45,312 nt of DNA, from the NCBI GenBank assembly GCA_017424485.1, contig JAFOYZ010000104.1, forward strand, positions 1-45,312, read 5' to 3'. This stretch comes from Bacteroidaceae bacterium (GTDB taxonomy: Bacteria > Bacteroidota > Bacteroidia > Bacteroidales > Bacteroidaceae). Below, piece after piece: positions 9,152 to 39,343 of this stretch (its first letter is position 1; every line of letters starts with the position of its first letter). The notes under the pieces are model-generated. The model made no database searches. It was not told where the DNA came from and was given only the letters and a program-made list of their open reading frames with translations. The position numbers and the translations under genes are program-made.

Positions 9152-10846
9152 TTAACAGTCCATAGCATTCATCATCATCACATTCACAGCACCTCCTGGA
9201 GGTGTCATGGGCATAACATTCTCATTCTCCATGATGGCCACTTCGAGCAGGAAGGGGCCATCGGTAGCGAGCATGGTGTCGATGGCACTGGCCAGTTGGT
9301 CGCGCTCCACCACCAATTGTGAAGGTATGCCATAGGCCTCGGCTATCTTCATGTAGTCGGGGTTCAGCATGGGTGTGCACGAGTAGCGCTTGCCGAAGAA
9401 GAGCTCCTGCCATTGGCGCACGTTGCCCAGGTAGTTGTTGTTGAGCAGAATCATCTTCACCGGTGCACCCGTCTCCATAATGGTGCCAAACTCCTGTATA
9501 CTCATCTGTATGCCGCCGTCGCCCATGAACACGCACACCGTGCGGTCGGGAGCACCGAAGGTGGCACCTACGGCAGCAGGAAGTCCGAATCCCATCGTGC
9601 CCAGTCCGCCCGACGTGATGATGCTGCGTTTCTGAGTATACTGGAAGTAGCGGGCCGACATCATCTGATTCTGTCCCACGTCGGTCACCAATATAGCCTT
9701 GTTACCCGAAGCTTCACTTACGGCGCGAGCCACCTCACCCATGCGTAGCGGTCCCTCCTCGGGGTATATGGCGTGGCGGATAACCTCATTCCACTCCTTC
9801 TCCTCGTATGGAGCGAAGCTCTCTATCCATTCCGTATGCTGAGCCTCATCGATAGCTGCGGTCAGGCGCGCCAGCGTGTCCTTGCAGTCGCCTAATACGG
9901 CCACGTCGGCATACACGTTCTTGTTTATCTCTGCCGGGTCGATATCGAGGTGTATCACCTTGGCCTGCTTGGCATAGGCATCGAGCCGACCGGTCACGCG
10001 GTCGTCAAAACGCATGCCTACGGCGATGAGCAAATCACATTCGTTGGTCTTTACATTTGGGCCCAAGTTGCCGTGCATTCCCAACATACCTTTTCGGAGA
10101 CGGTGTCCGTGGGGTAAGGTCGAAAGTCCCAGCAATGTACATCCCACAGGGATATCGGCCTTCTCTACGAAAGCGCGCAACTCCTCGGTGGCATTGCTTA
10201 GCTCGATGCCCTGTCCTGCAAGCAGCAAGGGGCGCTCGGCAGCGTTGATGAGGGCAGCAGCCTCCTCCACGCTCTTGGGGTCGGTTTCGGGTATGGCGAT
10301 ATATCCGCGCTCCACATCGATGGTGGCAGGTTTGAAGTCCACCATGCCCACCTGCGCATTCTTGGCAAAGTCGAGCACCACGGGTCCGGGGCGTCCGCTA
10401 CCCGCAATATGGAACGCACGTGCTACAGCCCAAGCAATGTCTTCAGGGCGGCGCACCTGATAGCTCCACTTCGATATAGGCTGCGTGATACCCACGAGGT
10501 CCACCTCTTGAAAGGCGTCGGTGCCAAGAAAGTTGGCCGCCACCTGTCCCGCTATGACCACAATGGGTGTACTATCCAGCATGGCATCGGCCACGCCCGT
10601 AATCGTATTGGTTGCACCGGGGCCGCTCGTCACAAGACAAACGCCTACCTTACCCGACGCACGGGCATAGCCCTGCGCTGCGTGGGCGGCACCCTGTTCG
10701 TGGCGCACGAGCACCTGCTTGAAATCATTCTGATGATCATACATGGCATCAAATACGGGCATGATGCTACCGCCAGGATAACCAAACACGGTATCTACGC
10801 CCTCGTGGATAAGAGCCTGCATGAGTGCTTCTGAACCAGTAATCAT
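9152..10846 (-). CDS. ilvB: Acetolactate synthase large (catalytic) subunit
   Basis: 564 aa, a ThDP enzyme with the GDGGIQMSIQE..NNNYLG motif, adjacent to ilvN. Confidence 0.92.
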   Translation of the reverse strand: MITGSEALMQALIHEGVDTVFGYPGGSIMPVFDAMYDHQNDFKQVLVRHEQGAAHAAQGYARASGKVGVCLVTSGPGATNTITGVADAMLDSTPIVVIAGQVAANFLGTDAFQEVDLVGITQPISKWSYQVRRPEDIAWAVARAFHIAGSGRPGPVVLDFAKNAQVGMVDFKPATIDVERGYIAIPETDPKSVEEAAALINAAERPLLLAGQGIELSNATEELRAFVEKADIPVGCTLLGLSTLPHGHRLRKGMLGMHGNLGPNVKTNECDLLIAVGMRFDDRVTGRLDAYAKQAKVIHLDIDPAEINKNVYADVAVLGDCKDTLARLTAAIDEAQHTEWIESFAPYEEKEWNEVIRHAIYPEEGPLRMGEVARAVSEASGNKAILVTDVGQNQMMSARYFQYTQKRSIITSGGLGTMGFGLPAAVGATFGAPDRTVCVFMGDGGIQMSIQEFGTIMETGAPVKMILLNNNYLGNVRQWQELFFGKRYSCTPMLNPDYMKIAEAYGIPSQLVVERDQLASAIDTMLATDGPFLLEVAIMENENVMPMTPPGGAVNVMMMNAMDC

Positions 10847-11265: not shown

Positions 11266-13176
11266 TTAGTCAATCAAGCGTATGGCCCCCTTGTCAGCCG
11301 AACTCACAAGCGAAGCATATGCTTTGAGAGCCTTAGAAACTTCACGTTTACGAGTCATAGGAGTCATGGGACGTGCTGCCAGTTCCTCATCGCTGAGACG
11401 TACATTGATGGTGCGTGCCGGGATGTCGATATCAATAATATCTCCCGTAACAATCTTACCTATGTTACCTCCTGCAGCAGCCTCCGGAGATATATGGCCG
11501 ATACTAAGGCCTGAGGTACCGCCCGAAAAACGGCCGTCAGTAATAAGTGCACAAGCCTTACCCAAATGCTTCGACTTGATGTATGAAGTAGGATAAAGCA
11601 TCTCCTGCATACCTGGACCTCCCTTAGGACCCTCGTGCGTAATGACTACCACGTCACCCGCAACGATGTCGCCTCCGAGGATACCCTCAACGGCAGCATC
11701 TTGTGAGTCGTAAACCTTGGCGGGGCCGGAGAATTTCCATATACTTTCGTCTACACCGGCAGTCTTCACTACGCAGCCATCTTGTGCAATGTTGCCTTTG
11801 AGCACGGCCAAACCGCCATCCTTCGAGTACGCATGAGCAAGGTCGCGAATACAACCTTCAGTACGATCAATGTCAAACTCCTTATAATACGATTCCTGCG
11901 AACCCATCACATTGCTGAACTTACGGGCAGGAGCACTGGCGTAGATTTGTATGGGAGTGAGAGTTGAGGGTTGAGAGCTAACAGATAAAAGTTGACCGTT
12001 TGCTGTATGATTAGCACAACTTTCCACATTGACTTTGCCCCCTGCGGGCGTATACCTTTGGTTCATCTTTCCACTTTCACCTTGTGTAATATCATATTTG
12101 GCAATAGCTTCGGCAAGTGTGAGCCCGTCTACACGTTTTTGGCCTGTATGGAGCAGATTACCCTTAGCCAACTCACCCATGATACCGAGGATACCTCCTG
12201 CGCGATTTACATCCTCGATGTGATACTTTTGCGTAGTGGGTGCTACCTTGCAGATGCAAGGCACACGACGAGAAAGCGCATCAATATCATCCATCGTAAA
12301 GTCCACACCGGCCTCATGAGCCACAGCGAGCAGATGGAGTACAGTATTGGTAGAACCTCCCATGGCAATATCCAACGTCATGGCATTAAGGAACGCTTCG
12401 CGAGTGGCAATGCTTTTAGGGAGCACACTCTCATCACCCTGCTCATAATATTTATAGGCATTTTGTACGATGAGATGGGCCGCCTCTTTGAAGAGTTGTA
12501 TGCGGTTTTTGTGTGTAGCCACAATAGTGCCATTACCAGGAAGGGCAAGGCCTATTGCTTCGTTAAGGCAGTTCATCGAGTTGGCGGTAAACATGCCTGA
12601 ACAACTACCGCATCCAGGACATGCTTTACGCTCGATAGCCTCTACCTCTTCATTACTCACACTCTCATCGGCCGACTTGATCATCGCATCAATGAGATCG
12701 AGGTGTGCACCATTGAGTTCACCAGCCTCCATAGGTCCGCCCGACACAAATACCGTGGGGATATTTAGGCGCATCGATGCCATGAGCATACCAGGAGTAA
12801 TCTTATCACAATTACTGATACACACCAATGCATCGGCCTTATGAGCATTGCACATATACTCCACGCTATCAGCAATGATGTCACGTGATGGTAGCGAGTA
12901 GAGCATTCCATCGTGCCCCATAGCAATGCCATCGTCGACAGCTATGGTGTTAAACTCAGCGGCGTAGCATCCCAACGCCTCAATCTCACGTTTTACGATC
13001 TGACCTATCTCGTGCAAGTGGGTATGGCCCGGTACAAACTGGGTAAACGAGTTAGCTATGGCAATAATAGGTTTGCCCATCATCTCACGTTTCATACCGT
13101 TGGCAATCCATAGGGCACGAGCGCCTGACATACGGCGGCCCTCTGTGCTGGTAGCGCTTCTAAGTGCGTGTTTCAT
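11266..13176 (-). CDS. ilvD: Dihydroxy-acid dehydratase, with an extra ~35-aa internal segment
   Basis: 636 aa with [26 protein letters not shown] and SPEAA motifs. See the finding on the low-complexity insertion near 11940-12060. Confidence 0.92.
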
Positions 13177-22297: not shown

Positions 22298-24337
22298 ATG
22301 ATTGATCAAGCGACCATAGACCGTATCATGGATGCCGCACAGATTGAGGATGTGGTATCGGAGTTTGTTACCCTGAGGCGACGAGGCGTTAACCTGGTCG
22401 GCCTATGTCCGTTCCATGACGACAAAACGCCCTCTTTCTATGTATCGCCCGCCAAAGGTTTGTGCAAATGCTTCAGCTGTGGCAAGGGAGGCAATGTGGC
22501 GCATTTCATCATGGAGCACGAGCAGCTCAACTACTACGAGGCGATGAAATGGCTTGCCAAGAAATATGGCATCGAGGTCAAAGAACGTGAGCTCTCCAAC
22601 GAGGAAAAGCTGGCACAAAGCGTACGCGAGAGCCTCTTCCTTGTGAACAACTTTGCCAACAACTATTTCCAGGACATTCTGCACAACCATCGCGATGGGC
22701 AAGCCATCGGCATGAACTATTTCCGCCAGCGCGGTTTCCGCGACGATATCATCAAGAAGTTCCAACTGGGCTTCAGTACGGAGAGTCGCGATGCACTATA
22801 TCAGGAGGCCAAGAAGAAGGGTTTCAATACCGACTATTTAGTAAAGACAGGCCTCTGCTACACCCGCGACGACGGACAGGTACGCGACCGTTTCTGGGGC
22901 CGTGTGATATTCCCCGTACACACTCTCTCGGGTAAAGTGGTAGCTTTCGGAGGCCGCGTGCTCAACACAGCAGATAAGAAGGTTGCCAAGTATGTCAACT
23001 CTCCCGAATCGGAAATCTATCATAAGAGCCGCGAACTCTACGGCATATACTTTGCCAAGCAGGCTATCGTGAAGCAAGACAAGTGCTTCCTCGTCGAAGG
23101 ATACACCGACGTCATATCCATGCACCAGGCTGGGGTTGAGAATGTGGTTGCATCATCGGGCACCTCACTCACTTCAGGGCAGATACGTATGATACACCGC
23201 TTCACCAACAACATCACCGTGCTTTACGATGGCGACTGGGCGGGTATCAAAGCATCGCTGCGAGGTATCGACATGCTGCTCGAAGAGGGAATGAACATTA
23301 AGGTCATGCTACTCCCCGACGGCGATGACCCTGACAGCTTTGCCCGCAAGCACAACGCCACAGAGTTTCAAGAGTATATAGCAGCACATGAGGTAGACTT
23401 CATCCGCTTTAAGACCAACCTCCTGATGACTGACGCCAAGGGCGATCCCTATAAACGTTCTGAAGTAATCAAGGATATCGTAAAGAGCATCGCAGTCATC
23501 CCAGAAGCTATCGTACGCTCCGAATATATCAAAGAGTGTAGTCAGATGTTACACGTAGAGGAGCGCATACTTGTAAGCGAAGTGGCAAAGTTGAAGAAAG
23601 AGAAGGAAGACTCTTCCACCACACAAAGAAGAGACGAAGCAAGCAGCACAACCACTCCATCTCCAACAGAGCCATCAGGCAATCAAGGAGAAGAGGGAAC
23701 ACACGCCTCCAGCCCCACAGGAAACCCTAAAGCACCTTCCGCCACCGAGAGCAAAGAAGACCATACAGCACAGGCCCTATGGACTAGCAATCCTCTATAC
23801 ACCAAGGAACAGCTCATCATCCAGCAATTGATACGTCACGGAGAGAAGGTGATGTTTATAGATGAGGAGACAGGCACCGAAGTGACCGTAACCGAATACG
23901 TAGTGTCAGAACTTGATTTAGACGGCATCACCTTCAGCACGCCGTTATTTGCAGAGGTCTTACGGGAACTAAGACAGCACATCGGCACCCCTGGGTTTAT
24001 AGCCGAACGATATTTCATTGGACATGCACAGCCCACACTAAGCCGCCTTGCTGCAGACCTTGTAGAGGAAAAATATCAGTTAAGCAAATATCATTCGAAG
24101 ACACAATCTGTGATCAAGGAAGCCGACCGCCTACACGAGATCATGCCACACCTGCTCGGCGACTACAAAATGGCCATCGTAGATATGGAATTAAAAGAAA
24201 CCCAGAACCAACTACGACAACCCGCCGTGATGAATGACCCCGCCCTATGCATGGAGACCATGGCTCGCTACAAGCAGTTGATGGAAGCAAGAAAAGCGAT
24301 GGCCAAAATCCTTGGCGATCGAGTGATTGGCGCATAA
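22298..24337 (+). CDS. dnaG: DNA primase
   Basis: 679 aa with a zinc ribbon (CPFHDDKTPSF..CFSCGKGG), a TOPRIM domain (EGYTDV..DGDWAG) and a Ser/Thr/Pro-rich linker before the C-terminal domain. Confidence 0.9.
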   Translation: MIDQATIDRIMDAAQIEDVVSEFVTLRRRGVNLVGLCPFHDDKTPSFYVSPAKGLCKCFSCGKGGNVAHFIMEHEQLNYYEAMKWLAKKYGIEVKERELSNEEKLAQSVRESLFLVNNFANNYFQDILHNHRDGQAIGMNYFRQRGFRDDIIKKFQLGFSTESRDALYQEAKKKGFNTDYLVKTGLCYTRDDGQVRDRFWGRVIFPVHTLSGKVVAFGGRVLNTADKKVAKYVNSPESEIYHKSRELYGIYFAKQAIVKQDKCFLVEGYTDVISMHQAGVENVVASSGTSLTSGQIRMIHRFTNNITVLYDGDWAGIKASLRGIDMLLEEGMNIKVMLLPDGDDPDSFARKHNATEFQEYIAAHEVDFIRFKTNLLMTDAKGDPYKRSEVIKDIVKSIAVIPEAIVRSEYIKECSQMLHVEERILVSEVAKLKKEKEDSSTTQRRDEASSTTTPSPTEPSGNQGEEGTHASSPTGNPKAPSATESKEDHTAQALWTSNPLYTKEQLIIQQLIRHGEKVMFIDEETGTEVTVTEYVVSELDLDGITFSTPLFAEVLRELRQHIGTPGFIAERYFIGHAQPTLSRLAADLVEEKYQLSKYHSKTQSVIKEADRLHEIMPHLLGDYKMAIVDMELKETQNQLRQPAVMNDPALCMETMARYKQLMEARKAMAKILGDRVIGA

Positions 24338-29472: not shown

Positions 29473-30201
29473 TCACTTCCTCGTTCCTATCACCTGATTG
29501 CCATAGTCAACATTGATTCGCGAATAGCGATTCCAGCCCACCTCGTTAAGTCCCTTTTCATAGAAGGTCTGCAGTTTGGCAAACTTCTGCTCATAGTTTC
29601 CAGGAGCACCCAATACGATGACATGACTGCCCACACGAGGCACCAGCTCCAGCTCACCACGTCGAGTCACGTTGATCTGCTCTATCTGCGCATTCCATAG
29701 TTCGTCACCTTGCAGATAAAGCGCAAGTTCCAGCAACTCCTTCTTAGCGAAATCGCGCGTGATATATCCCGTAGCCACAGGCACATATACCGCCTTGGCT
29801 ATACGTTCTATCACCTCTCCCTCCTCATCAAGGTAGTAGCTCTCCCCCCCATTGGTCATGACACGCAAGATAGGCCGCCGGCACTTTACCTCCACCACCA
29901 CATATCCACCTATAGTCTTATAACATTCGCTCGACGCGATAAGCGGTGACGCCTCCAGAGCGTCCTCTATGGCATGCAAACTGACTTCCTCAAGTGGTCT
30001 GCCCGTAGGGTTGAGATCGCTTTTAGCCAGCAAAGCTACCACATCAGTGGTGTTCATATACCCAGTCTCCAGGCTATCACGCATCTCAAGCCGAACACCT
30101 TTGCACACCTGCCCTGTAGGCTTGCTACATAGAGCGATTGCAGCAAAGGCAATGTAGCCAACCAACAAGACAAGGACTATAGTGGAAAGTATCTTCTTCA
30201 T
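29473..30201 (-). CDS. ftsQ: Cell division protein FtsQ (POTRA domain)
   Basis: 242 aa with one N-terminal TM helix followed by POTRA/FtsQ-type domains, immediately downstream of murC. Confidence 0.7.
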   Translation of the reverse strand: MKKILSTIVLVLLVGYIAFAAIALCSKPTGQVCKGVRLEMRDSLETGYMNTTDVVALLAKSDLNPTGRPLEEVSLHAIEDALEASPLIASSECYKTIGGYVVVEVKCRRPILRVMTNGGESYYLDEEGEVIERIAKAVYVPVATGYITRDFAKKELLELALYLQGDELWNAQIEQINVTRRGELELVPRVGSHVIVLGAPGNYEQKFAKLQTFYEKGLNEVGWNRYSRINVDYGNQVIGTRK

Positions 30202-30304
30202 ACATTAATATTAAAAGTTAAGAATTAAAGGTCAAAAGCTAAAACTAAGGGCACCTATCTTGATTTATAGTTCCCGCCTGTTCTAATCTTCAGTTTATAA
30301 TTTT

Positions 30305-31684
30305 TTAATTCTTCAGAATCTTTGTTATCTCAGTGGCGTAATTCTCAATATCACCAGCCCCAAGCGTCACGAGCACCTCCAATTCATCTTTCTTAGCCTC
30401 CACAGTGGCGAGCACATCACACTTGTTTATCATCTGTTTCTGCACATGCTCTGCCAGATTATCGTATATGAGTTGGCTGGTCACACCGGGGATAGGCAGT
30501 TCACGAGCAGGATATATATCGGTAAGGATTACCTCATCAAAGAGCGAGAGACTCTCGGCAAACTCACGATAGAAGTCCTGTGTACGCGAATAGAGGTGAG
30601 GCTGGAATATGGCAGTCACCTTACGTCCTGCATACAGTTCACGTATCGAGAGAGCGCTCTGCCAGATTTCGGCCGGATGATGGGCATAGTCGCTGAGATA
30701 CACCTTCGCCTCACTCTTCAGTTTGAAGTCGAAGCGGCGTTCCACACCGCGGAAGCTCTCCATACCTATACGCAACTCCTCATCAGCAACTCCCGCCAAC
30801 CGAGCCATCGCCATAGCCGCCACTCCATTATCGATATTGACACTCAAGGGCACACCAAGATGAATATCCTTGACCACACCTTCGGGGTGAACGAAGTCAA
30901 TCACAATCTCGCCCCCTCCAATACGGATGTTATCGGCATGATAGTCGCCCTTGGCACGAGAATAGGTATATACACGCACTCCCGGCTGCACCTGTGGCTT
31001 TATCTCCAGCCCCTCGTGAATGATGAGCACACCGTCCGGGCGGATGAGCGAGGTATATTTCTCGAAACTCTCCCAGTAAGCCTCTGGCGTACCATAGATA
31101 TCCAGGTGATCTGGATCTGTAGAGGTGATTACCGACATGTAGGGACGCAGTTGATGGAACGAGCGGTCAAACTCATCGGCCTCGATCACCACATAGTCAC
31201 TCTTGTCAGTCAGCAGCAGATTGGTACCATAGTTCTGCGATATGCCACCCAGAAAAGCCGTTGTCCCCACATGAGAGCCATAGATAAGGTGGGCTGCCAT
31301 GGTCGATGTAGTCGTCTTTCCATGCGTACCCGCCACACACAGACCTCGGCGGCTGCGAGTGATGGTACCCAACAATTGGGCACGTTTCTGTATCTCGAAG
31401 CCCTGTTCGCGAAACCACGTGAGTTCACTATGATCTTGTGGTACCGCAGGCGTATACACCACCAAGGTATGCGCCTTGTCTTTGCAGCTATCGGGAATCA
31501 TCGCACAGTCATCCTCATAATGGATAGCCGCACCTTCTGCATTGAGGCGCTCGGTGAGTTCACTGGCCGTACGGTCATACCCCGCCACCACCTTGCCTAA
31601 TGACAAGAAGTAACGCACCAAAGCACTCATACCGATGCCACCAGCACCAATGAAATATACAGACTTTATCGAATCAATCTCCAT
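30305..31684 (-). CDS. murC: UDP-N-acetylmuramate--L-alanine ligase
   Basis: 459 aa with GAGGIGMSAL and GTHGKTTTSTM motifs and Mur ligase middle and C-terminal domains. Confidence 0.92.
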   Translation of the reverse strand: MEIDSIKSVYFIGAGGIGMSALVRYFLSLGKVVAGYDRTASELTERLNAEGAAIHYEDDCAMIPDSCKDKAHTLVVYTPAVPQDHSELTWFREQGFEIQKRAQLLGTITRSRRGLCVAGTHGKTTTSTMAAHLIYGSHVGTTAFLGGISQNYGTNLLLTDKSDYVVIEADEFDRSFHQLRPYMSVITSTDPDHLDIYGTPEAYWESFEKYTSLIRPDGVLIIHEGLEIKPQVQPGVRVYTYSRAKGDYHADNIRIGGGEIVIDFVHPEGVVKDIHLGVPLSVNIDNGVAAMAMARLAGVADEELRIGMESFRGVERRFDFKLKSEAKVYLSDYAHHPAEIWQSALSIRELYAGRKVTAIFQPHLYSRTQDFYREFAESLSLFDEVILTDIYPARELPIPGVTSQLIYDNLAEHVQKQMINKCDVLATVEAKKDELEVLVTLGAGDIENYATEITKILKN

Positions 31685-31730
31685 GTTTCTTTCTCCTTAT
31701 TATACCTTATATATACCTTTCTCAATTTAG

Positions 31731-31758
31731 CTGCGAAGATACATAAAATAATTGACAA
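31731..31758 (-). promoter_or_regulatory. 28-bp promoter module, copy 1 (upstream of murC)
   Basis: The minus strand TTGTCAATTATTTTATGTATCTTCGCAG is identical to 39393-39420. Its -7 box TATCTTCG is at 31734-31741, 49 nt upstream of the murC ATG. Confidence 0.6.
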
Positions 31759-31803
31759 GAGGCTGTGTCGTAAAATTTATTTACGACACAGCCTCTTCTT
31801 TTT
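31757..31803. terminator. Strong hairpin terminator between the OMP pseudogene and the murC promoter
   Basis: AAGAGGCTGTGTCGTAAA-ATTTA-TTTACGACACAGCCTCTT (18-bp perfect stem). It is followed by CTTTTT on the plus strand and ATTATTTTA on the minus strand. Confidence 0.55.
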
Positions 31804-31932
31804 ATCACTCCAAAAGGCACAAACTCGTTATTCTAAAGTACCATTTACGCTTACCGATTATTTTAGCAAATCCAAGAAGTGATTAACGAAGTCAAGGTAT
31901 AACATGAAACAATCGTAATTAGTGCGGCAGTC

Positions 31933-32759
31933 TTATAATCCTATTCCCACAGACAAGCCGAAGGAGCACAAATGCCTCTTTCCATCCATATACGAGAGAG
32001 AGTTGACTCCACCAGGATACTTCAGATAGTCTCCATCTTTATAATAGCCATTCATGATAAACTTGCCATAAGCACGCACATTAAGGTCTACAGTTCCCAA
32101 CGGGAAGCAATACCCTACAGCCCCATGTCACCTGAGTTTCAAGCGTACCTTGATTATCAGTCACGTCATATTCTCCAAATCCATGATTGGGCAAATCTTT
32201 CAGCTCCACATTATACTTGGGATAGTAGCCCGACAATGTCACCTGGCCGGAGACCGTGTTATATTCGCACTTCATTGGAATAACGAGTCCCGGTCCCACA
32301 TTCACAAATACATTGCCAACCTTGTATTGGTAGAAGACCGGGATTTCTATAAGGTTGATGGTCTGCATCTCCTTGCATCACGGGCATGGGCCTTATAGCT
32401 CAGGTTGTCACCTTCATCATCTACAGCGTTACACTTGTAGAAAAACTCTTCAGATTCCAAGGTGCGTTTCTCCTGTCCATAGTGAATGCCTAGTCCGACA
32501 CCTCCATTCCAGTTTATAGGAAATAGATTTCTATACCAGCACCATACTTCGTTCCTCCATACATCGGTATCTCAGCACCAGATGTAGCATGTACACTCTC
32601 TATAGAAGCAGCTATCATGAAATGCCTCTCCCTACTTCTTTCCCTCTTCTGTACAGGTGCTACACCGCCTTTCGACACATAAAGGCTTTCGTAATCGTAT
32701 AGTGCACAGGTCTCGGCGGCCGCCAATAAACAAAGGCATGCCGTTAGTATATATTTCAT
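31933..32759 (-). pseudogene. Outer-membrane beta-barrel (porin-family, OMP_b-brl-like) gene disrupted by at least 3 frameshifts
   Basis: The signal peptide MKYILTACLCLLAAAETCA starts at 32759. The reading frame must switch near 32514, near 32375 and near 32120 to give one alternating-strand beta-barrel protein ending FGLSVGIGL-stop at 31933. At least two of the shifts lie in short C/G runs. Confidence 0.6.
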
Positions 32760-32798
32760 TATTCTCATTCTATTACGCCGACGAAAACCGTTTAGCGT

Positions 32799-32819
32799 GG
32801 AACGAGGAACGAGGAACCG
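32799..32819. repeat. Heptanucleotide array GGAACGA x3
   Basis: Reads ggaacga|ggaacga|ggaaccg. Its reverse complement (CGTTCCTCGTTCC) also occurs at 29279-29290 and 29478-29488. Confidence 0.6.
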
Positions 32820-32909
32820 AAGGTCGCTGGCGCAAGGGAAAAGCAACGAGGAGCGATGAAATGGGCATTTTTTAAGGATTCGCGCACGCGCACCTTGCAT
32901 TTTTGGAGA

Positions 32910-32970
32910 AAAAAAGTTTTATTTTTGGCCTGGCAGAGTGCAGCGAAGTGCGCTTCGCTGCAACGTTGAC
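32910..32970. repeat. Left terminal inverted repeat (61 bp)
   Basis: AAAAAAGTTTTATTTTTGGCCTGGCAGAGTGCAGCGAAGTGCGCTTCGCTGCAACGTTGAC. It contains the hairpin GCAGCGAAG-TGCG-CTTCGCTGC. Confidence 0.9.
32920..32927 (+). promoter_or_regulatory. Inward-facing -7 box TATTTTTG inside the left TIR
   Basis: Exact TAnnTTTG match. The mirror copy lies at 35139-35146 on the minus strand in the right TIR. Confidence 0.35.
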
Positions 32971-33129
32971 GGCAGCGCGGAACATTAGCGCTGATTGCGA
33001 CGGCAACGCGGCATGATAGCGTTGCTTGTGACGACGGGAGATTTATCCCCTCAAAGGAACGCGCTTTAGCACCATAAGATTTGTCGGCACCAAGGAGAAG
33101 TCAAGTGCAGCATTGCAACTTGTTTTTTT
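32935..33129 (+). ncRNA. Hypothetical ~195-nt small RNA (TIR promoter to terminator)
   Basis: Bounded by the -7 box at 32920-32927 and the terminator at 33102-33129. The region is GC-rich with local hairpins (e.g. GCAACGC-9 nt-GCGTTGC at about 33003-33027) and has no ORF longer than 18 codons. Confidence 0.25.
33102..33129 (+). terminator. Intrinsic terminator inside the cassette
   Basis: CAAGTGCA-GCAT-TGCA(A)CTTG followed by TTTTTTT. Confidence 0.5.
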
Positions 33130-33214
33130 GCTTTTGAGAAGTTCTTTTTCCTAATTCTCAGGTTCAGGGAATACGCATTATAAAAAACATTCAAGTTTTC
33201 CGTTGCTTTTTCCC

Positions 33215-33233
33215 TCACGCGAATTTCGCGTGA
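33215..33233. promoter_or_regulatory. 19-bp perfect palindrome, operator-like
   Basis: TCACGCGAA-T-TTCGCGTGA. Confidence 0.4.
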
Positions 33234-33325
33234 AATATTGACTCATAAGTTGAGAGATAAGTAAGGTTTCATTCGAGAAAAATGAGAATGCGTTTTTCCC
33301 TATTCACAGGTTTCACTTATCGCCA

Positions 33326-33402
33326 CCCCTGCAGGGGTAATAGTTTATCCCTGCAAGGGTAATATTTTCTCCCTGCAAGGGTAGCGTGTTATCCCTGCAG
33401 GG
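33326..33402. repeat. Four iteron-like direct repeats with 22-bp phasing
   Basis: CCCTGCA(A/G)GGG cores start at 33327, 33349, 33371 and 33393. Units 1 and 4 are perfect palindromes (CCCCTGCAGGGG, CCCTGCAGGG). Spacers begin with TA and are T-rich. An AT-rich stretch follows at about 33403-33480. Confidence 0.8.
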
Positions 33403-33525
33403 ATAACAACAAATAGAACCATAGAATAATGGAAATCTATTGTTCCATATTAGTCAAACGAACCATCCTTTTTATTTTCAAGCGTGCTGATTGACTAGGT
33501 ATTGACTTTGGGGGTATTAATGTTG

Positions 33526-33533
33526 TAACTTCG
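33526..33533 (+). promoter_or_regulatory. -7 box TAACTTCG for the VapE-like gene
   Basis: TAACTTCGCAAC lies 149 nt upstream of the ATG at 33683. Confidence 0.4.
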
Positions 33534-33644
33534 CAACGAAAACAGAGTTTTCAACGATAACGAAGACGATGACGAAAACTTTTTTCTGTAGCGTATCAAA
33601 TGCAGAATAAATGGGGTTGATGGCACAGTACCTTTGTACTGTCA

Positions 33645-33659
33645 GACGATAACGAAAAC
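33645..33659. repeat. Inner inverted repeat, left copy (GACGATAACGAAAAC)
   Basis: Exact reverse complement of 35084-35098, 24 nt upstream of the ORF start. Confidence 0.8.
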
Positions 33660-33682
33660 TTATATATTATATAATAGAAGCA

Positions 33683-35029
33683 ATGAAGAAGTTATTTACA
33701 AAAGCATTCGAGTGGCTGCGAAGAAGAGTAACAGCGCTTAAGGACACGCGAAGTGTGTACGCTAACGCTAACGTTAACGATGACAACAACGATTGTGATA
33801 ACGTTAACTGTTCCGTGAAAAGTGAAGCACTTCAAGGGAGCTCCCTCAACTCTCAACCTTCATCCATTAGCAACACCAATCACGACCCGCTGCTGCTACG
33901 CATCGAGGAGTTCATCGGGGAGCATTATCGGGTGCGCTTCAATGCGCTATCGCAGCAACACGAGATCAGCAGACGTGATGCCGAGCGATGGATGCCTGTA
34001 AGCAGCATGCAATGTAACCGCTTGGTGATGGAGCTGAACCGTGCGGGTATCATCCTGGCAAAACCGTACCTAGTAAAAACGGTGATAGAGGGGGGCACAC
34101 TGGCCGAGGAGTATCACCCCGTGCGAAGCTACTTGACGACGTTGCCCGAATGGGACGGCGTGGAGCGTATAGAAGCACTCTTCCGCCGGGTGACCGATGA
34201 TGAGCAACTGCTCCGCTGGTTGCGCAAGTGGTTCATCGCCATGGTGGCACAGGCACTGAACCGTATGGGAGCGTATGGCAACAGCGTGTGCCCTATACTC
34301 ATCAGTAGCGTACAAGGATGGGGCAAGAGCCAGTTTGCCAAACTGCTGGTGCCGCCACAGCTGAGAGGCGCCTTTACCGACACCTTCAATCTGCAGCAGG
34401 AGGACGGCTGTCTGCGTCGCATGACAGCCTACATGCTCGTCAATGTGGATGAGATTGACCGGTTCGGCGACCGCCGAATGTCGACCTTCAAGAATATGGT
34501 GCAACTGGCTACGGTATCGATGAAGCGTGCCTATCACACACAGATGGAGGAGAAGGAACGCATGGCCTCGTTCATCGCCACGAGCAACCGACGCCATCTG
34601 CTCAATGACGAGAGTGGTAGCCGCCGCTTCATCTGTGTGGAACTAGCACATGCCATTGATGTGACTACTCCTTTGGACCATGCCCAACTCTATGCCGAGG
34701 CATTGGCTGCGATCGAAAGCGGTGAACGCTGCTGGTTCACCGAAGAGGAGACGCGCGAACTGGAAGCACACAACAATTCCTTTGCCACCAGCCAAGGGGT
34801 ATGGGCATTAATGAAGCGCAGCCTCACACTGCGCGACATTCCTGAAGGGAACGAGGAGCGACAGACGCAACTATACTCGGCCAACGAGGTGTACGATTAT
34901 CTGCACCAACAGTCGCCCTCGGCCATGAGCGGCATCGAGCGCAGCACCTTCGGGTACTTCCTCACCGAGTTTGGGGCACAACAGGTGAGGGTGAGGAACA
35001 AGAGAGTTTATGGCGTTAGCTTAGGCTAA
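33683..35029 (+). CDS. VirE/VapE-family P-loop NTPase (D5-helicase-like) with a DUF3874-like C-terminus
   Basis: 448 aa with Walker A SSVQGWGKS (nt 34313-34330), Walker B MLVNVDEID and a downstream ATSN..SGSRRF motif typical of VapE. The first ~67 aa are low complexity and are encoded by repeat words. Confidence 0.8.
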   Translation: MKKLFTKAFEWLRRRVTALKDTRSVYANANVNDDNNDCDNVNCSVKSEALQGSSLNSQPSSISNTNHDPLLLRIEEFIGEHYRVRFNALSQQHEISRRDAERWMPVSSMQCNRLVMELNRAGIILAKPYLVKTVIEGGTLAEEYHPVRSYLTTLPEWDGVERIEALFRRVTDDEQLLRWLRKWFIAMVAQALNRMGAYGNSVCPILISSVQGWGKSQFAKLLVPPQLRGAFTDTFNLQQEDGCLRRMTAYMLVNVDEIDRFGDRRMSTFKNMVQLATVSMKRAYHTQMEEKERMASFIATSNRRHLLNDESGSRRFICVELAHAIDVTTPLDHAQLYAEALAAIESGERCWFTEEETRELEAHNNSFATSQGVWALMKRSLTLRDIPEGNEERQTQLYSANEVYDYLHQQSPSAMSGIERSTFGYFLTEFGAQQVRVRNKRVYGVSLG

Positions 35030-35083
35030 CGCCAACGATGACGATAACGTTGACGTTAACTAAGCATCCGACAGACAGTCTTC

Positions 35084-35098
35084 GTTTTCGTTATCGTC
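35084..35098. repeat. Inner inverted repeat, right copy
   Basis: GTTTTCGTTATCGTC, overlapping the inner edge of the right TIR. Confidence 0.8.
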
Positions 35099-35156
35099 AA
35101 CGTTGCAGCGAAGCATGCTTCGCTGCACTCTGCCAGGTCAAAAATAAAACTTTTTT
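35096..35156. repeat. Right terminal inverted repeat (61 bp)
   Basis: Reverse complement of 32910-32970 with 4 mismatches. Its internal 22-bp perfect palindrome is GCAGCGAAGCATGCTTCGCTGC. Confidence 0.9.
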
Positions 35157-35157
35157 A

Positions 35158-35199
35158 CTCGGTGAAAAGGCCTATTTTGTGCCTTTTCACCGAGTTTTT
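35158..35199 (+). terminator. Strong intrinsic terminator immediately outside the right TIR
   Basis: CTCGGTGAAAAGGC-9 nt-GCCTTTTCACCGAG (14-bp perfect stem) followed by TTTTT. Confidence 0.7.
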
Positions 35200-35236
35200 C
35201 TAACTTGATGCCTCTTCTAAATCTATATTTCATAGC

Positions 35237-35276
35237 AATCACGCTGGGCGCTACAGATGCAGCGCCCAGCGTGATT
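35237..35276. other. 15-bp perfect-stem hairpin 45 nt downstream of the ftsW stop
   Basis: AATCACGCTGGGCGC-10 nt-GCGCCCAGCGTGATT with no adjacent T-run. It may be an RNA 3'-end stabiliser or a recombination site; function unknown. Confidence 0.35.
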
Positions 35277-35320
35277 ATGCAAACCAGAATAAGTAATTAC
35301 GTGAACAGCACTTTGCGTAT

Positions 35321-36571
35321 CTATGCATTCACAATCGATGAATCTCTCAAGATTTCAGGGATATCATCCTCGGCCTGTTCGGCTGCAGCAGCTTGGGCAT
35401 CGCGAGCCATCTTCTCGGTATGGTAGCTGACGCTGAGTATCATGCCGATATAGCAGCAATTGATGATGGTAGAGGTTCCTCCTCGGCTTATCAGCGGAAG
35501 GGGCTGACCGGTAACAGGGAAGAGGCCTACAGCAACCATCATATTGAGCATGGCCTGTGCCACAAGCATCAGCGCACAACCCATGACCAGGAACGCAGGG
35601 AAATACCCTCGACACCTCTGCGCTATCTTGGCCGCTCGTATGAGCAAGATAATATAGAGCATCACCACAAAGGCACCTCCTAGCAGGCCTGTCTCTTCGA
35701 TGATGATGGCAAAGATAAAGTCGGAATAGGCCTGAGGCAGATAGTCGCGCTCCACAGAGTTGCCCGGACCGCGACCTATGATATTGCTCGATGCAATGGC
35801 CATCGCGGCATGCGACTCCTGATAGTTCTCGTCGGTAATCTTATACTGTGCGGCGGGGATAGCATCAGAATCACCAAAACGCTGGATACGTGCCTGCCAG
35901 GTGACGAGTCGATTAAGGCCCTGAATCTTGCCTAATGTCTTACTAGGTACGAAGAGCAACACAGAAAGGAAGAGTGCAGCAGCGGCACATAACGCGAAGA
36001 ATAGTTTGAGTAACTGACGCATGGGTACACGACCTACATACATCATCAGACATACCACGCCGAAGAGCAATACAGCGGTAGAGAGGTTTTCAGGTGCGAT
36101 GAGTCCACACACGATAATGGTCATCCAGAGTATCCACTTCATGGCATTGGGTGTAGCACCATCCTCTGTCTGCATACGTGATAGGATAACTGCCGTACCC
36201 ATGACCACGCCCACCTTGGCAAACTCAGAAGGCTGTATGGTAAAGCCTGCAACCCTCATCCATCTGGCGGCATCATTGACATCGACTCCTTTTAGCAAGA
36301 CCCATATCAACATGCATATAGATGCCGGAACAAGCACAAGCGGTATGGTCTTATAGAAACGGTAAGGGATAAGATGAGCTACATAGACCACGCCCAAACC
36401 CAAGAACAAGTAGGTACTATGCTGGCGGATAGGCCACCAGTAATTACCACCACTCTTATAGGTAAGCATACTAGCCGCACTGAACACCTCCACTATAGAG
36501 ATGAGTAGCAGCAACATGAATACCACCCACACGACTTTGTCGCCACGAAATATTCGATTCAGAAAATCCAT
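35321..36571 (-). CDS. ftsW: SEDS-family peptidoglycan glycosyltransferase FtsW
   Basis: 416 aa with about 10 TM helices and PLPLISRGGTS. It lies between murD and the position where murG would be. Confidence 0.88.
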   Translation of the reverse strand: MDFLNRIFRGDKVVWVVFMLLLLISIVEVFSAASMLTYKSGGNYWWPIRQHSTYLFLGLGVVYVAHLIPYRFYKTIPLVLVPASICMLIWVLLKGVDVNDAARWMRVAGFTIQPSEFAKVGVVMGTAVILSRMQTEDGATPNAMKWILWMTIIVCGLIAPENLSTAVLLFGVVCLMMYVGRVPMRQLLKLFFALCAAAALFLSVLLFVPSKTLGKIQGLNRLVTWQARIQRFGDSDAIPAAQYKITDENYQESHAAMAIASSNIIGRGPGNSVERDYLPQAYSDFIFAIIIEETGLLGGAFVVMLYIILLIRAAKIAQRCRGYFPAFLVMGCALMLVAQAMLNMMVAVGLFPVTGQPLPLISRGGTSTIINCCYIGMILSVSYHTEKMARDAQAAAAEQAEDDIPEILRDSSIVNA

Positions 36572-36605
36572 CGATTTGATTTACGATTTATAAATTTATT
36601 TTTAT

Positions 36606-36721
36606 GGAGTTCAGGAGTCAGGAGTGACGCTTCGCTTAGGAGTGCAGACAATAGCGAAGCACTTGGCTATCGCGTAACTGCGGTATTGTCTGAACTCCTG
36701 AACTTCTGACTTCTGTACTCC
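36606..36721. repeat. GGAGT/ACTCC-word palindromic element, copy B (murD-ftsW spacer)
   Basis: The plus strand begins GGAGTTCAGGAGTCAGGAGT..AGGAGTGCAGACAATAGCGAAGC and ends ..CTGCGGTATTGTCTGAACTCCTGAACTTCTGACTTCTGTACTCC. The arms pair over ~40 bp, and several pairs are G-U only in the plus-strand RNA. Confidence 0.8.
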
Positions 36722-36728
36722 TAAATAA

Positions 36729-38060
36729 CTACAATTTTCTCACACACTCCTTAAATTGCACGCCACGGTCTTCGTAACTCTTGAAGAGATCGAAGCTGGC
36801 GCAACAGGGACTGAGCAATACAGCCTCACCCTTCTGTGCCATGCGGTAGGCTGCATCGACAGCATCCTGCATGCTCTGCACATCGGCTACGGGCAATCCG
36901 AAGGGATCGAAGAAGGCGTGCAACTTCTCATTGTGCAAACCCATATAGATGAGTCCTACACACTTCTCGCGTACGAGATCAGCTATTTCCGTATAGTCGT
37001 TACCTTTGTCCTTGCCACCAAGAATGAGGATCGTCTTCTGTGTCATGCTCTGCAGAGCATACCAGCAGCTGTTAACGTTGGTTGCCTTGGAGTCGTTGAT
37101 ATAGTCGACCCCACGCACACGAGCCACATATTCGAGCCGATGCTCCACACCCTTAAATGTGGCTAAGGCCTGACGTATCACCTCTTTCTGGATACCCGAA
37201 AGTGAGGCTGAGATACCTGCAGCCATAGAATTATACAGGTTGTGCTTGCCCGTGAGAGCCAGCTCTTCCTGCTCCATATTGAAGGCATAGGGAGCAGCAA
37301 AGTAGAGTTCATCAGCATCAGTGTAGGCCATCACACCATCGCGCTTATCCTCGGCAAAGGGGTACAGCTTGGCATGAATGCCATGCTTGGAGAGCTCACG
37401 CTGAATAATGGGGTCGTCGTTCCAGAAGATGAAGGCATCGTCGTCAGTCTGATTCTGCACGATGCGGAACTTGGCATCCACATACTCCTGCATGTTATGG
37501 TTGTAGCGATCGAGATGGTCGGGCGTGATATTGAGCAAGATGGCGATATTGGCACGGAACTCATACATATTGTCGAGCTGGAAGCTAGACAGCTCTATCA
37601 CATACCAGTCATAGTCACACGTGGCCACCTGATAGGCAAGGCTCTGCCCAATGTTACCTGCAAGGCCCACATTGTAACCTGCACTTTTGAAGATATGGTA
37701 GATGAGCGATGTGGTCGTTGTCTTACCATTACTACCGGTGATACACACCATCTTGGCATTGGTGTAGCGTCCGGCAAACTCAATCTCTGAGATAACGGGT
37801 ATACCCCGCTCTTGTATCTTGAGCATCATGGGGGCATCGGCCGGAATGCCTGGACTCTTGATAATCTCGTCGGCATTGAGAATCAGTGCCTCGGTATGCT
37901 GCCCATCCTCCCATGCTATATGGTACTCCTCGAGCATCTGCTTGTAATGCTCCTTGATCTTCGACATATCGGAAAGGAATACATCGAACCCCTCTTTCTG
38001 TGCCAGGACAGCGGCACCTACGCCACTCTCGCCTCCACCTAATACAACGACTCGCTTCAT
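36729..38060 (-). CDS. murD: UDP-N-acetylmuramoylalanine--D-glutamate ligase
   Basis: 443 aa with GGGESGVGAA and ITGSNGKTTTT motifs. Confidence 0.92.
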   Translation of the reverse strand: MKRVVVLGGGESGVGAAVLAQKEGFDVFLSDMSKIKEHYKQMLEEYHIAWEDGQHTEALILNADEIIKSPGIPADAPMMLKIQERGIPVISEIEFAGRYTNAKMVCITGSNGKTTTTSLIYHIFKSAGYNVGLAGNIGQSLAYQVATCDYDWYVIELSSFQLDNMYEFRANIAILLNITPDHLDRYNHNMQEYVDAKFRIVQNQTDDDAFIFWNDDPIIQRELSKHGIHAKLYPFAEDKRDGVMAYTDADELYFAAPYAFNMEQEELALTGKHNLYNSMAAGISASLSGIQKEVIRQALATFKGVEHRLEYVARVRGVDYINDSKATNVNSCWYALQSMTQKTILILGGKDKGNDYTEIADLVREKCVGLIYMGLHNEKLHAFFDPFGLPVADVQSMQDAVDAAYRMAQKGEAVLLSPCCASFDLFKSYEDRGVQFKECVRKL

Positions 38061-38062
38061 AG

Positions 38063-39343
38063 TTATCTTATCTTCAATGTTATTATCGTCACTGCAGCCA
38101 ATATGATGGTCACAATCCAGAACCGCACGGTAATCTTCGCTTCGTGGAAAAGGGTATCAGGGTGTGTCACCTTGATGCTACAGCCAGGATCGACCTTCTG
38201 CACTTGGGCCACCGAGGTGCGGAAATGGTCATGAATGGGGGTACGCTTGAAAAAGCGTTGCTTTACCCCCTTTTTCTTACCAGCCTTGTAATAGAAACGC
38301 TGGATGATGACAGAGAGACTCTCGACGAAGAACACGCCACAGAGAATAGGGATGAGCAGCTCCTTACGGATAATAATAGCGCTCACAGCAATGATACCTC
38401 CAATGGTGAGGCTGCCCGTATCACCCATGAACACCTGGGCTGGGAAGGCATTGTACCAAAGGAAACCGATGAGGGCCCCCACAAAAGCACATAAGTATAC
38501 CACCAGTTCCTCTGAACCTGGTATATACATGATATTCAGGTAACCGGCCATAGATATATGACTGGACACATAGGCCAATATACCTAGCACTACACCGATA
38601 ATGGCCGAATTGCCAGCCGCCATACCATCCATACCATCATTGAGATTGGCACTGTTTGACACAGCCGTCACCACTAGAATAGTCATAAAGACAAACAAGA
38701 GCCATCCACCCACCTGCTTGTACTCACCTAACCAGTTGAAGGCATCGGCATAGTCGAGGTTGTTGTTCTTGAAGAAGGGGATAGTGGTCTTGGTAGACTT
38801 CTTCGCCTCACTCTTATGCACAATTTCAGTGGCACCAGCCGCACCACGCTGTACTTCTACGTTCTCACGGATAACGGCTTGGTCACTCAAGTAGAGCGTA
38901 AGGCCCACAATAAAACCGAGACCCACCTGACCGATAATCTTGAACATGCCGTGCAGTCCCTCCTTATCACGCTTGAACACCTTGATATAGTCATCGGCAA
39001 AGCCCAAAGCGCCAAGCCACACCGTGGTGACAAGCATGAGTATCATATATACATTGTGAAGCCGGCCGAGCAACAGGCACGGGATGAGTATCGCTGCCAA
39101 GATAATGACACCACCCATCGTAGGAGTACCAATCTTCTGCACGCCAAACGGATCGATGCTTGCATCGCGCTGCGTCTCGGTAATCTGCTGTCGCTTGAGC
39201 ATATCGATAAAGTGCTTACCGAAGATGGTAGACACCAACAGGGCTATGATGATAGCAAGCAGTGAGCGGAACGAGATATAGGTAAACATGCCCGCACCAG
39301 GGACATTCAGTTTGTCAAGATAATTGAAGAGATAGTATAACAT
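38063..39343 (-). CDS. mraY: Phospho-N-acetylmuramoyl-pentapeptide transferase
   Basis: 426 aa, polytopic, with NLNDGMDGMA and FMGDTGSL motifs. Confidence 0.92.
   Translation of the reverse strand: MLYYLFNYLDKLNVPGAGMFTYISFRSLLAIIIALLVSTIFGKHFIDMLKRQQITETQRDASIDPFGVQKIGTPTMGGVIILAAILIPCLLLGRLHNVYMILMLVTTVWLGALGFADDYIKVFKRDKEGLHGMFKIIGQVGLGFIVGLTLYLSDQAVIRENVEVQRGAAGATEIVHKSEAKKSTKTTIPFFKNNNLDYADAFNWLGEYKQVGGWLLFVFMTILVVTAVSNSANLNDGMDGMAAGNSAIIGVVLGILAYVSSHISMAGYLNIMYIPGSEELVVYLCAFVGALIGFLWYNAFPAQVFMGDTGSLTIGGIIAVSAIIIRKELLIPILCGVFFVESLSVIIQRFYYKAGKKKGVKQRFFKRTPIHDHFRTSVAQVQKVDPGCSIKVTHPDTLFHEAKITVRFWIVTIILAAVTIITLKIR

Follow-up and report, generated by a model that had tools for sequence, protein, structure and literature searches.

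The 45,312-nucleotide contig JAFOYZ010000104.1 of a Bacteroidaceae bacterium (hereafter, the window) carries, in its cell-division/cell-wall (dcw) cluster between ftsW and murC, a compact cassette in which a single gene for a VapE/DUF3874 P-loop NTPase, preceded by structured non-coding DNA, is enclosed by long, hairpin-bearing inverted repeats (hereafter, arms). Cassettes of the same kind occur at unrelated loci of rumen and gut Bacteroidaceae, usually with a second, divergent gene for an HU-HIG protein; their arms are conserved beyond neutral expectation and their presence differs between very close strains. We tentatively interpret the cassette as a self-contained Rep-like helicase module with functional inverted ends, the window copy being a reduced member of a Bacteroidaceae family located at a rearrangement hot spot of the dcw cluster. 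Among known systems it appears most like the Rep/ori module of a mobile element, but one standing alone and provided with inverted, putatively functional ends.

Inverted arms and internal repeats of the cassette

The two arms are 66 nucleotides long, 92% complementary and separated by 2123 nucleotides (Table 1). A preliminary description of this DNA had reported a 61-nucleotide inverted repeat with 57 matches and three of its four mismatches in the loop of an internal palindrome; this was borne out, the fourth mismatch lying in the core, and the arms proved somewhat longer. A 22-nucleotide piece of the arm has these two occurrences in the window and no others, the number expected from shuffled sequences being 0.00, and the hairpin GCAGCGAAG...CTTCGCTGC is predicted by folding in each arm. 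Both arms also hold TATTTTTG, facing inward, as had been described; it is visible directly in the sequence and is a candidate promoter-type TAnnTTTG box. The AACGTTGACG motif does not appear to fit the Mpi invertase site.

The conservation of the arms exceeds what the divergence of the genes between them would predict. The VapE genes of this family are under purifying selection (ratio of nonsynonymous to synonymous substitution rates, dN/dS, 0.11–0.22), and the synonymous divergence (dS) of the window gene amounts to 0.54 against the orthologous cassette at locus L039 and 1.06 against that at L030 (related loci and contigs are referred to by such numbers throughout). Despite this, the right arm together with its hexamer arrays is 93% and 97% identical to L039 and L030, respectively, the left core is 95% identical to that of L039, and the right arm taken by itself is 95–98% identical to the matching arms of L030, L039 and L026, with dS of the genes at 0.44–1.06. 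In L030 the conservation stems in part from a recombinant 3' end. Since the arms are conserved relative to L039 beyond the dS of 0.54 found for VapE, selection appears to act on the arm sequence itself.

The unit shared among copies is wider than the arms and covers about 2.4 kb, roughly 32.80–35.20 kb, so that the inverted ends placed at 32910 and 35156 by the preliminary description are real but do not mark its limits. In five copies with window-type arms located in unrelated contexts, homology at the end remote from the VapE stop codon ceases about 75 nucleotides outside the core, a stretch holding a degenerate hairpin with T-run and a CGCGCG box, and on the VapE side just past the terminator hairpin; among copies in different contexts it generally stops within about 15–75 nucleotides of the arms. 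The extension of about 55–75 nucleotides outside the left arm aligns with L039, L012 and L030 and more loosely with most other cassettes (window 32870–32929 is 95% identical to L039), its counterpart in several relatives being a clean hairpin followed by a T-run, and a terminator hairpin homologous to that of the window lies at the same end of L026. Further out, positions 32781–32812 are 91% identical to the flank immediately outside the arm of the L038 cassette, and comparable hexamer arrays occur outside the arms of L039 and L012. On the side opposite the VapE stop codon, segment 32781–32856 probably forms the outer limit of the unit. Toward its outer edge the repeat gradually fades, and no target-site duplication, as had also been noted before, is visible at the unit ends of the five copies, which can be placed exactly only to within a few tens of nucleotides. 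As a separate observation, a 42-nucleotide motif (…GGAACCGAAGGTCGCTGGCGCAAGGGAAAAGCAACG…) at 32808–32849 recurs with 93% identity at L008 7880–7922, in an unrelated intergenic leader on the opposite strand, 1.6 kb from the L008 cassette.

Short repeats of the form (ACGNNN)n, which the preliminary description had noted only in part, are strongly concentrated in the cassette, which has four such arrays as compared with one in the remaining 42.9 kb. They lie at the same positions in most relatives. Directly after the VapE stop codon two arrays stand in opposite orientations and abut the arm hairpin and its A/T-rich core; this inverted arrangement recurs in L039, L030 and L007, in a stretch 93–97% identical between the window and the first two. 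An (ACGNNN)n array also lies within the 5' coding region of VapE, at 33759–33782, and encodes residues ~27–43; over 33759–33802 it is translated as a low-complexity peptide, NANVNDDNNDCDNVN, in the region that varies most among the relatives of the protein.

The approximately 710 nucleotides between the left arm and the ATG contain a single open reading frame (ORF) of at least 50 amino acids (33066–33218, minus strand, 50 amino acids), in agreement with the earlier statement that none reaches 60. The 19-bp palindrome and the four iterons phased at 22 bp that had been described in this segment were also found, the phased pattern giving 5 matches against 0.21 expected. A terminator-ended transcript suggested near 33100–33130 was not called by a consensus scan; neither was the suggested TAACTTCG promoter, although the region around it is conserved with relatives. 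The putative promoter and leader segment is 67–97% identical to L039 (89–97% for the promoter/leader stretch) and up to 85% identical to L030, amid neighboring non-coding DNA that cannot be aligned, and window 33164–33229 is 81% identical to L005 9112–9177, which lies upstream of the L005 HU-HIG gene. At the place and phase of the window's CCCTGCAGGG palindromes, relatives carry CACCGCGGTG palindromes; this segment cannot be aligned between the window and L039, which carries the latter type, whereas the rest of the two cassettes is 90% identical. In sequence alignment, then, the cassettes are mosaics of exchanged segments. No known RNA family matched in the cassette.

Short tandem 7- to 8-mers were additionally seen beside the arms of several relatives (L024 ~6680–6720, L039 ~12175–12205, L038 ~10380–10410 and the inner side of the left arms of L007–L010), being plant-telomere-like TTTAGGG/TTTAGRG in some cassettes and TTTTCAA or TTATGAA in others. 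Independent assemblies break at the cassette repeats (starts of L026–L029, start of L023, ends of L025), either at the phased palindromes, 314–347 nucleotides upstream of the VapE start codon, or within the arm or heptamer repeats; this looks like an assembly effect in which repeats fragment short-read assemblies.

Table 1. Positions of the features of the cassette and its immediate surroundings in the window.
Feature	Position	Strand	Details
Outer flank	32781..32856	.	GGAACGAGGAACGA-type hexamer repeats at 32799-32812 and 32843-32856; direct-repeat family
Extension outside left arm	32851..32905	+	Degenerate hairpin/T-run CGATGAAATGGGCATTTTTT, then CGCGCACGCGC box; conserved
Left arm	32906..32971	+	A/T-rich core with CCTGGCA box 32910-32935; hairpin GCAGCGAAG-TGCG-CTTCGCTGC 32940-32961; AACGTTGACG; homologous arms in 12 relatives
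19-bp palindrome	33215..33233	.	TCACGCGAATTTCGCGTGA; fold z -4.6
Four 10-bp palindromes, 22 bp apart	33326..33405	.	CCCTGCAGGG type; 33326-33339, 33348-33361, 33370-33383, 33392-33405
Putative promoter and 5' leader of VapE	33485..33682	+	TGTTGTAACTTCGCAA 33524-33539; ACGNNN arrays 33554-33577 and 33638-33662
VapE/DUF3874 P-loop NTPase gene	33683..35029	+	448 amino acids, without primase domain; Pfam, PHROG and PDB matches
Two ACGNNN arrays in opposite orientation, directly after stop codon	35029..35103	.	35029-35058 (+), 35080-35103 (-); fold z -4.1
Right arm	35095..35160	-	Hairpin 35105-35126, core 35131-35156
Predicted intrinsic terminator of VapE gene	35157..35200	+	15-bp stem then TTTTT; first half is outermost arm sequence; fold z -9.4
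Palindrome and terminator downstream of ftsW	35237..35276	.	Outside cassette; inverted-repeat scan; synteny with cassette-free L046 ends here

The VapE/DUF3874 protein and its family of cassettes

The VapE gene is the only ORF of at least 60 amino acids on its strand in the cassette and encodes, as its Walker motifs had suggested, a VirE/VapE-type NTPase. The translation matches PF05272 (VapE-like) over residues 152–367 with an E-value of 8.7e-32 and 110.8 bits against a cut-off of 25, PF12990 (DUF3874) over residues 391–443 with an E-value of 1.4e-08, and also PF19263 (DUF5906). Both Walker A (QGWGKSQ) and Walker B (LVNVDEID) are intact and invariant across 45 homologues. Matches among the PHROGs were to the helicase and primase C-terminal parts of phage primase-helicases, and the only relative of solved structure is the SaPI1 Rep1-DNA complex (PDB 7pds), recovered by sequence (1.8e-13) and also by fold, in keeping with the earlier assignment to the D5/VapE type. 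The VirE_N profile, which had been proposed for comparison together with PF05272 and PF12990, behaved differently, in that Pfam gave no match to this archaeo-eukaryotic primase (AEP) domain before residue 152, where the protein consists instead of a helix, an N/D stretch of low complexity and a small unit of the alpha/beta type; nor did Pfam detect an HUH endonuclease domain in VapE. The predicted structure is poor overall (predicted local distance difference test, pLDDT, 64.6) and its fold evidence is weak; in this model DUF3874 consists of helices followed by three strands and gives weak local fold matches to winged-helix repressors.

Relatives of the protein are encoded at 21 loci in species-representative genomes, 12 of them with 57–80% identity and all of these in metagenome-assembled genomes (MAGs) of rumen or gut Bacteroidaceae, and about 900 proteins of a large protein collection match at E ≤ 1e-20. 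When the relatives with full context were inspected (14, with 59–90% amino acid identity), the gene and its upstream region were found inside inverted repeats of 27–236 nucleotides in 12. The arms follow a common plan, an outer A/T-rich core ending in one or two TGGCA boxes (e.g. AAAAGTTTTATTTTTGGCCTGGCA or AAAGTTCATAAATCGGTTGGCATTGGCA) being followed inward by a hairpin and then by hexamer runs of the AACGTT/GACGAT (ACGNNN) type. The core falls into four sequence types, and in 13 of 13 cassettes both arms are of the same type (mean core identity 0.92 within a cassette vs. 0.71 between cassettes); a hairpin adjoins the core in 20 of 27 arms, with stems of differing sequence. Arm type tracks VapE subfamily. 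Inward-facing TAnnTTTG boxes are present in three of the four types and missing from the (d)-type arms. In the more distant L038 cassette (38% amino acid identity) each end is a long hairpin whose stem is common to both, and some very distant relatives have other flanking repeats.

In 11 relatives the arms also enclose a gene for an HU-HIG protein of 200–215 amino acids (an HU domain and a C-terminal helix-turn-helix), which is divergent from VapE, with the phased palindromes between the two genes. The full form of the cassette therefore reads arm, divergent HU-HIG gene, control region with 22-bp-phased palindromes, primase-less VapE/DUF3874, ACGNNN arrays and inverted arm. The HU-HIG gene is absent from the window, L008, L012, L030 and L039, and the window copy is thus a reduced form of a two-gene cassette. 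The preliminary description had missed this, as well as the broken dcw cluster in which the cassette sits and the extent of the unit beyond its arms.

Two further observations concern individual members. At L012 (9171–10742, MAG RGIG7720) a window-type cassette is internally deleted and retains, besides its arms, just the final 136 codons of VapE; the same MAG holds three copies in all, the other two being the diverged cassettes L001 and L009. A 605-nucleotide non-coding segment without an Rfam match is 96% identical between L038 (13302–13906) and L039 (12255–12858), in two strains; the VapE cassettes that it adjoins are unrelated, and the gene beyond it also differs, being NusG/UpxY-like in one strain and a zinc-ribbon gene in the other.

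Genomic contexts and strain polymorphism

Apart from the cassette the window consists of housekeeping genes, including ilv/leu genes, asnS, purB, dnaG, folE, tpiA and those of the dcw cluster. The latter is broken here (29473–39343): mraY, murD and ftsW (39343–35321, minus strand) are followed by the cassette, about 1 kb of gene fragments, and murC and ftsQ, and murG, murE, ftsI, ftsA and ftsZ are absent from the window, murG not being at its usual place. The canonical order from rsmH to ftsZ, including ftsW-murG-murC, is kept in a species with 86% identical FtsW, and in several relatives murC is inverted beside ftsW; the ftsW/murC junction is on these grounds a recurrent breakpoint. The stretch between murC and the cassette (31759–32795) holds only frameshifted ORF fragments (32514–32900, 32081–32368 and 31933–32100) with a signal-peptide-like start and a weak outer-membrane beta-barrel match (E 0.17), and is probably a decayed gene for an outer-membrane-like protein; two genes of 433 and 602 amino acids occupy its place in L037.

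Comparison of close strains reveals that the cassette is not a fixed part of this locus. Four contigs of the closest species, whose FtsW is 91% identical to that of the window, encode one and the same FtsW protein and differ after ftsW and one further gene. One of them (L039) carries an orthologous cassette of about 90% nucleotide identity in the same orientation relative to ftsW, another (L038) has at the same spot a different HU-HIG and VapE cassette (38% amino acid identity) in the opposite orientation, in the third (L037) murC and ftsQ follow and there is no cassette, and in the fourth (L040) unrelated genes follow, again without a cassette. In addition, a metagenome contig (L046) encoding a 100% identical FtsW (95.7% at the nucleotide level) lacks the cassette, its match to the window ending at the terminator palindrome of ftsW (35237). 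These five contigs thus show that very close strains are polymorphic for the cassette and that breaks have occurred repeatedly at this site. Beyond this locus, related cassettes occupy at least five unrelated housekeeping contexts, with sharp ends. By the preliminary description, its reading would have failed had the segment been fixed, single-copy and in one orientation in all related genomes, had the ORF missed VapE/D5-type models, or had the repeats been ordinary intergenic words; none of these was the case, the cassette recurring at unrelated loci and being present or absent among near-identical strains.

Presence, absence and replacement were seen among the FtsW relatives, but not a clean empty site, and since the flanks are rearranged these relatives offer no clean insertion junction. 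The DUF4924 neighbor of L024 is uninformative in this respect because the contexts differ on both sides. Orientation is constant within sets of near-identical contigs from different samples (window/L022/L023, L030–L033 and L026–L029). The locus pair L073/L074 (SNRY01000126.1) belongs to a palindromic contig with dcw genes mirrored around ftsW/murD, probably an assembly artefact.

No recombinase gene lies in the cassette. Pfam detected no integrase, transposase, relaxase or primase domain in or adjoining it, as the preliminary description had held, nor in the 27 window ORFs scanned (nearly all long non-overlapping ones), except for the host dnaG (22298–24337); with neither transposase nor target duplication, the earlier view of a discrete cassette that is not an insertion sequence stands. 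Six annotated contexts contained no integrase, attachment (att) sites, or mobilization or capsid genes. No protein relative was found in the 2.9 million contigs of IMG/VR, where two arm-core patterns gave 0 and 1 matches, the single match, with neither VapE nor HU nearby, being a chance one; VapE proteins of 30–35% identity do occur on small unannotated virome scaffolds labelled 'Bacteriophage sp.', a label that is unverified. Among PLSDB plasmids the non-coding parts had no DNA match, and the protein matches there are Bacteroides chromosomal-type records. The PADLOC and NCBIfam defence models gave no match.

Possible nature of the cassette

The architecture is reminiscent of the replication module found in the pathogenicity islands of Staphylococcus aureus (SaPIs), whose Rep proteins are self-loading helicases with a C-terminal winged helix that binds penta- or hexanucleotide iterons; these lie on either side of an A/T-rich region immediately downstream of rep and have opposite orientations (PMC9371898). 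Shared with it are a VapE-type P-loop core, hexanucleotide repeats directly downstream in opposite orientations and, putatively, a small C-terminal DNA-binding-like domain. The cassette differs in having no island, integrase, primase, repressor or packaging genes, in its long hairpin-bearing inverted arms, 22-bp-phased palindromes and, usually, an HU-HIG gene upstream, and in its Bacteroidaceae host. The Bacteroides protein BT4734 shares the VapE and DUF3874 domains and has in addition an N-terminal AEP primase domain (PMC11724360), which the cassette protein lacks.

On the strength of the likeness to SaPI Rep, we infer that VapE may bind the hexamers or the arms and replicate or unwind DNA from them. 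As a SaPI-Rep-like, self-loading hexameric helicase and initiator, it would recognize the ACGNNN arrays by means of a winged-helix-like C-terminal DUF3874. With a cruciform-prone palindrome and an A/T-rich core next to these arrays, each arm has the look of a small origin or loading site, and because the inverted arrangement of the arrays matches the iteron layout of SaPI Rep and recurs at the same positions in most relatives, we read the arms as putative sites at which the cassette's own helicase would load or bind. The two arms, identical and in opposite orientation, would then constitute the functional ends of the module, which would be placed or replaced at different chromosomal sites, here the ftsW-murC hot spot, by a recombination route that it does not itself encode. 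The phased palindromes are more plausibly operators for a dimeric HU-HIG/winged helix-turn-helix partner, which the window lacks; their variation is independent of that of VapE. A comparable use of repeats is known from phage P4, whose alpha protein is a helicase-initiator of the D5/VapE kind acting with two distant cis sites (ori and crr) that hold the same short repeats. Unlike the cassette protein, alpha has a primase domain, and the sites it acts with are not inverted repeats at the termini; P4 is a complete satellite phage with an integrase.

Several observations weigh against reading the cassette as a helicase module with functional ends. Movement is deduced from distribution only, given that neither a clean empty site nor a target duplication was seen, and a search of short contigs for terminal overlaps gave no sign of a circular or episomal form. 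Subfamilies L024, L001, L009 and L004 have arms and no ACGNNN arrays, which means either that some cassettes do without the hexamers or that different short repeats stand in for them. The winged-helix reading of DUF3874 is weakened by the poor structural model, and since the 22-bp palindromes differ between the window and L039, in which VapE is 88% identical, VapE is probably not their reader. Finally, the Bacteroides finegoldii protein WP_022276060 forms with WP_195399327 the same divergent HU-HIG and VapE/DUF3874 pair (about 35% identity) with intergenic palindromes, yet such B. finegoldii pairs lack flanking inverted repeats; arms are therefore not needed by every member of the wider gene pair and, by sequence comparison, are a feature of this subclade.

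Alternatively, the cassette could be a non-autonomous element with terminal inverted repeats, its VapE gene, with or without HU-HIG, being a passenger moved by a transposase encoded elsewhere in the genome. Mobile insertion cassettes of the MIC231 type offer a precedent, having inverted ends, passenger-type genes and no transposase. We regard this as unlikely, even though inverted and conserved ends, sharp unit boundaries in unrelated contexts, the want of an internal recombinase, covariation of the core between both arms and purifying selection on the arms would all be expected of such an element. Compared with mobile insertion cassettes and miniature inverted-repeat transposable elements, no target-site duplication and no cognate insertion sequence with the same ends was seen, the outer edge fades gradually, and the arms are long, modular and variable in length (27–236 nucleotides). 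No candidate transposase was present in any context. In 0.94 Mb of fetched loci, scanned in a way that detects the window-type core only, this core was found at VapE cassettes and never alone or around other cargo. That arm type tracks VapE subfamily, on the other hand, would be expected if the cassette's own protein reads the arm.

The possibility that the two genes form a resident, non-mobile module, acting in conflict or defence or as nucleoid-associated proteins, with the arms serving as matched terminators, insulators or operators, is likewise an unlikely one in our judgment. Its scattered distribution would then result from homologous exchange at variable hot spots combined with lineage-specific expansion. 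HU-HIG genes, which are almost entirely without conserved operonic linkages, do show lineage-specific expansion and rapid divergence in Bacteroidetes, and a role in conflicts with invasive DNA has been proposed for them (PMC5499826). Terminator-type hairpins at both outer edges, purifying selection on VapE, the mosaic nature of cassettes exchanged as alleles at one locus (L038 vs. L039) and the setting of the B. finegoldii pairs among housekeeping genes point the same way. However, PADLOC recognized nothing, identical terminator sequence of 60–236 nucleotides is not normal for two different genes, and the window keeps its left arm although no gene is left there to terminate. At least five unrelated contexts with sharp ends require some process of relocation.

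A bolder variant, to which we give little credence, is that of a new class of compact mobile element without a transposase: with HU-HIG assisting, the Rep-like helicase would act on the hairpin-bearing, origin-like ends to have the unit copied or released, for example by initiating replication at both. If true, such an element would spread and reshuffle chromosomes without a known recombinase.

It is improbable that the cassette is what decay has left, namely the Rep/ori module alone, of a phage satellite, an integrative mobilizable element or a small plasmid. Helicases of the VapE type are characteristic of the modules with which phages, satellites and plasmids replicate (PMC5862659), the window copy has lost HU-HIG, and L012 is internally deleted; nonetheless, the same compact two-gene unit recurs with the same ends, gene and arms are under purifying selection, and the searches of the six annotated contexts, IMG/VR and PLSDB described above yielded no trace of a parent element. 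The satellite-like, self-replicating episome envisaged in the preliminary description finds no backing in the same results, given the lack of integrase, att sites, circular contigs, and IMG/VR relatives or arm motifs; its ends are inverted and not direct repeats.

Its other suggestion, an invertible module, which a host recombinase would flip by way of the inverted repeats, is highly improbable: long flanking repeats, as in Bacteroides invertons, inward TAnnTTTG boxes in three of four arm types and the opposite orientations of L038 and L039 at one site in one species could suggest it, but L038 and L039 are different cassettes rather than flipped copies, each set of near-identical contigs shows one orientation, the window and L039 agree relative to ftsW, the arms are far longer than those of invertons, (d)-type arms have no promoter box, no recombinase lies nearby, and no obvious coding or promoter junction would be switched. 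A parvovirus-like rolling-hairpin replicon, whose terminal repeats likewise carry hairpins and whose superfamily 3 (SF3) helicase Rep belongs to the same broad class, was rejected, as there is no HUH domain and the loop differences are point changes instead of flip/flop; the cassette is moreover integrated in double-stranded DNA and has no capsid gene.

The VirE/VapE, DUF3874 and BT4734-like families have been described earlier (PMC5862659, PMC11724360), as has the HU-HIG family, and in the literature outside subscription journals we found no description of an HU-HIG and VapE unit within hairpin-bearing inverted arms. Among the gene families of gut Bacteroidales to which no role has been assigned, VapE/DUF3874 and HU-HIG rank with the most expanded. 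Should they make up self-contained units whose ends are conserved and functional, these would provide a concrete and testable handle on that role, whether it lies in origin-like sites for loading, in DNA mobility by a new route or in a system for conflict. Since the cassettes coincide with breaks in otherwise conserved gene order, they may also help to explain the frequent rearrangements and assembly breaks in these genomes.

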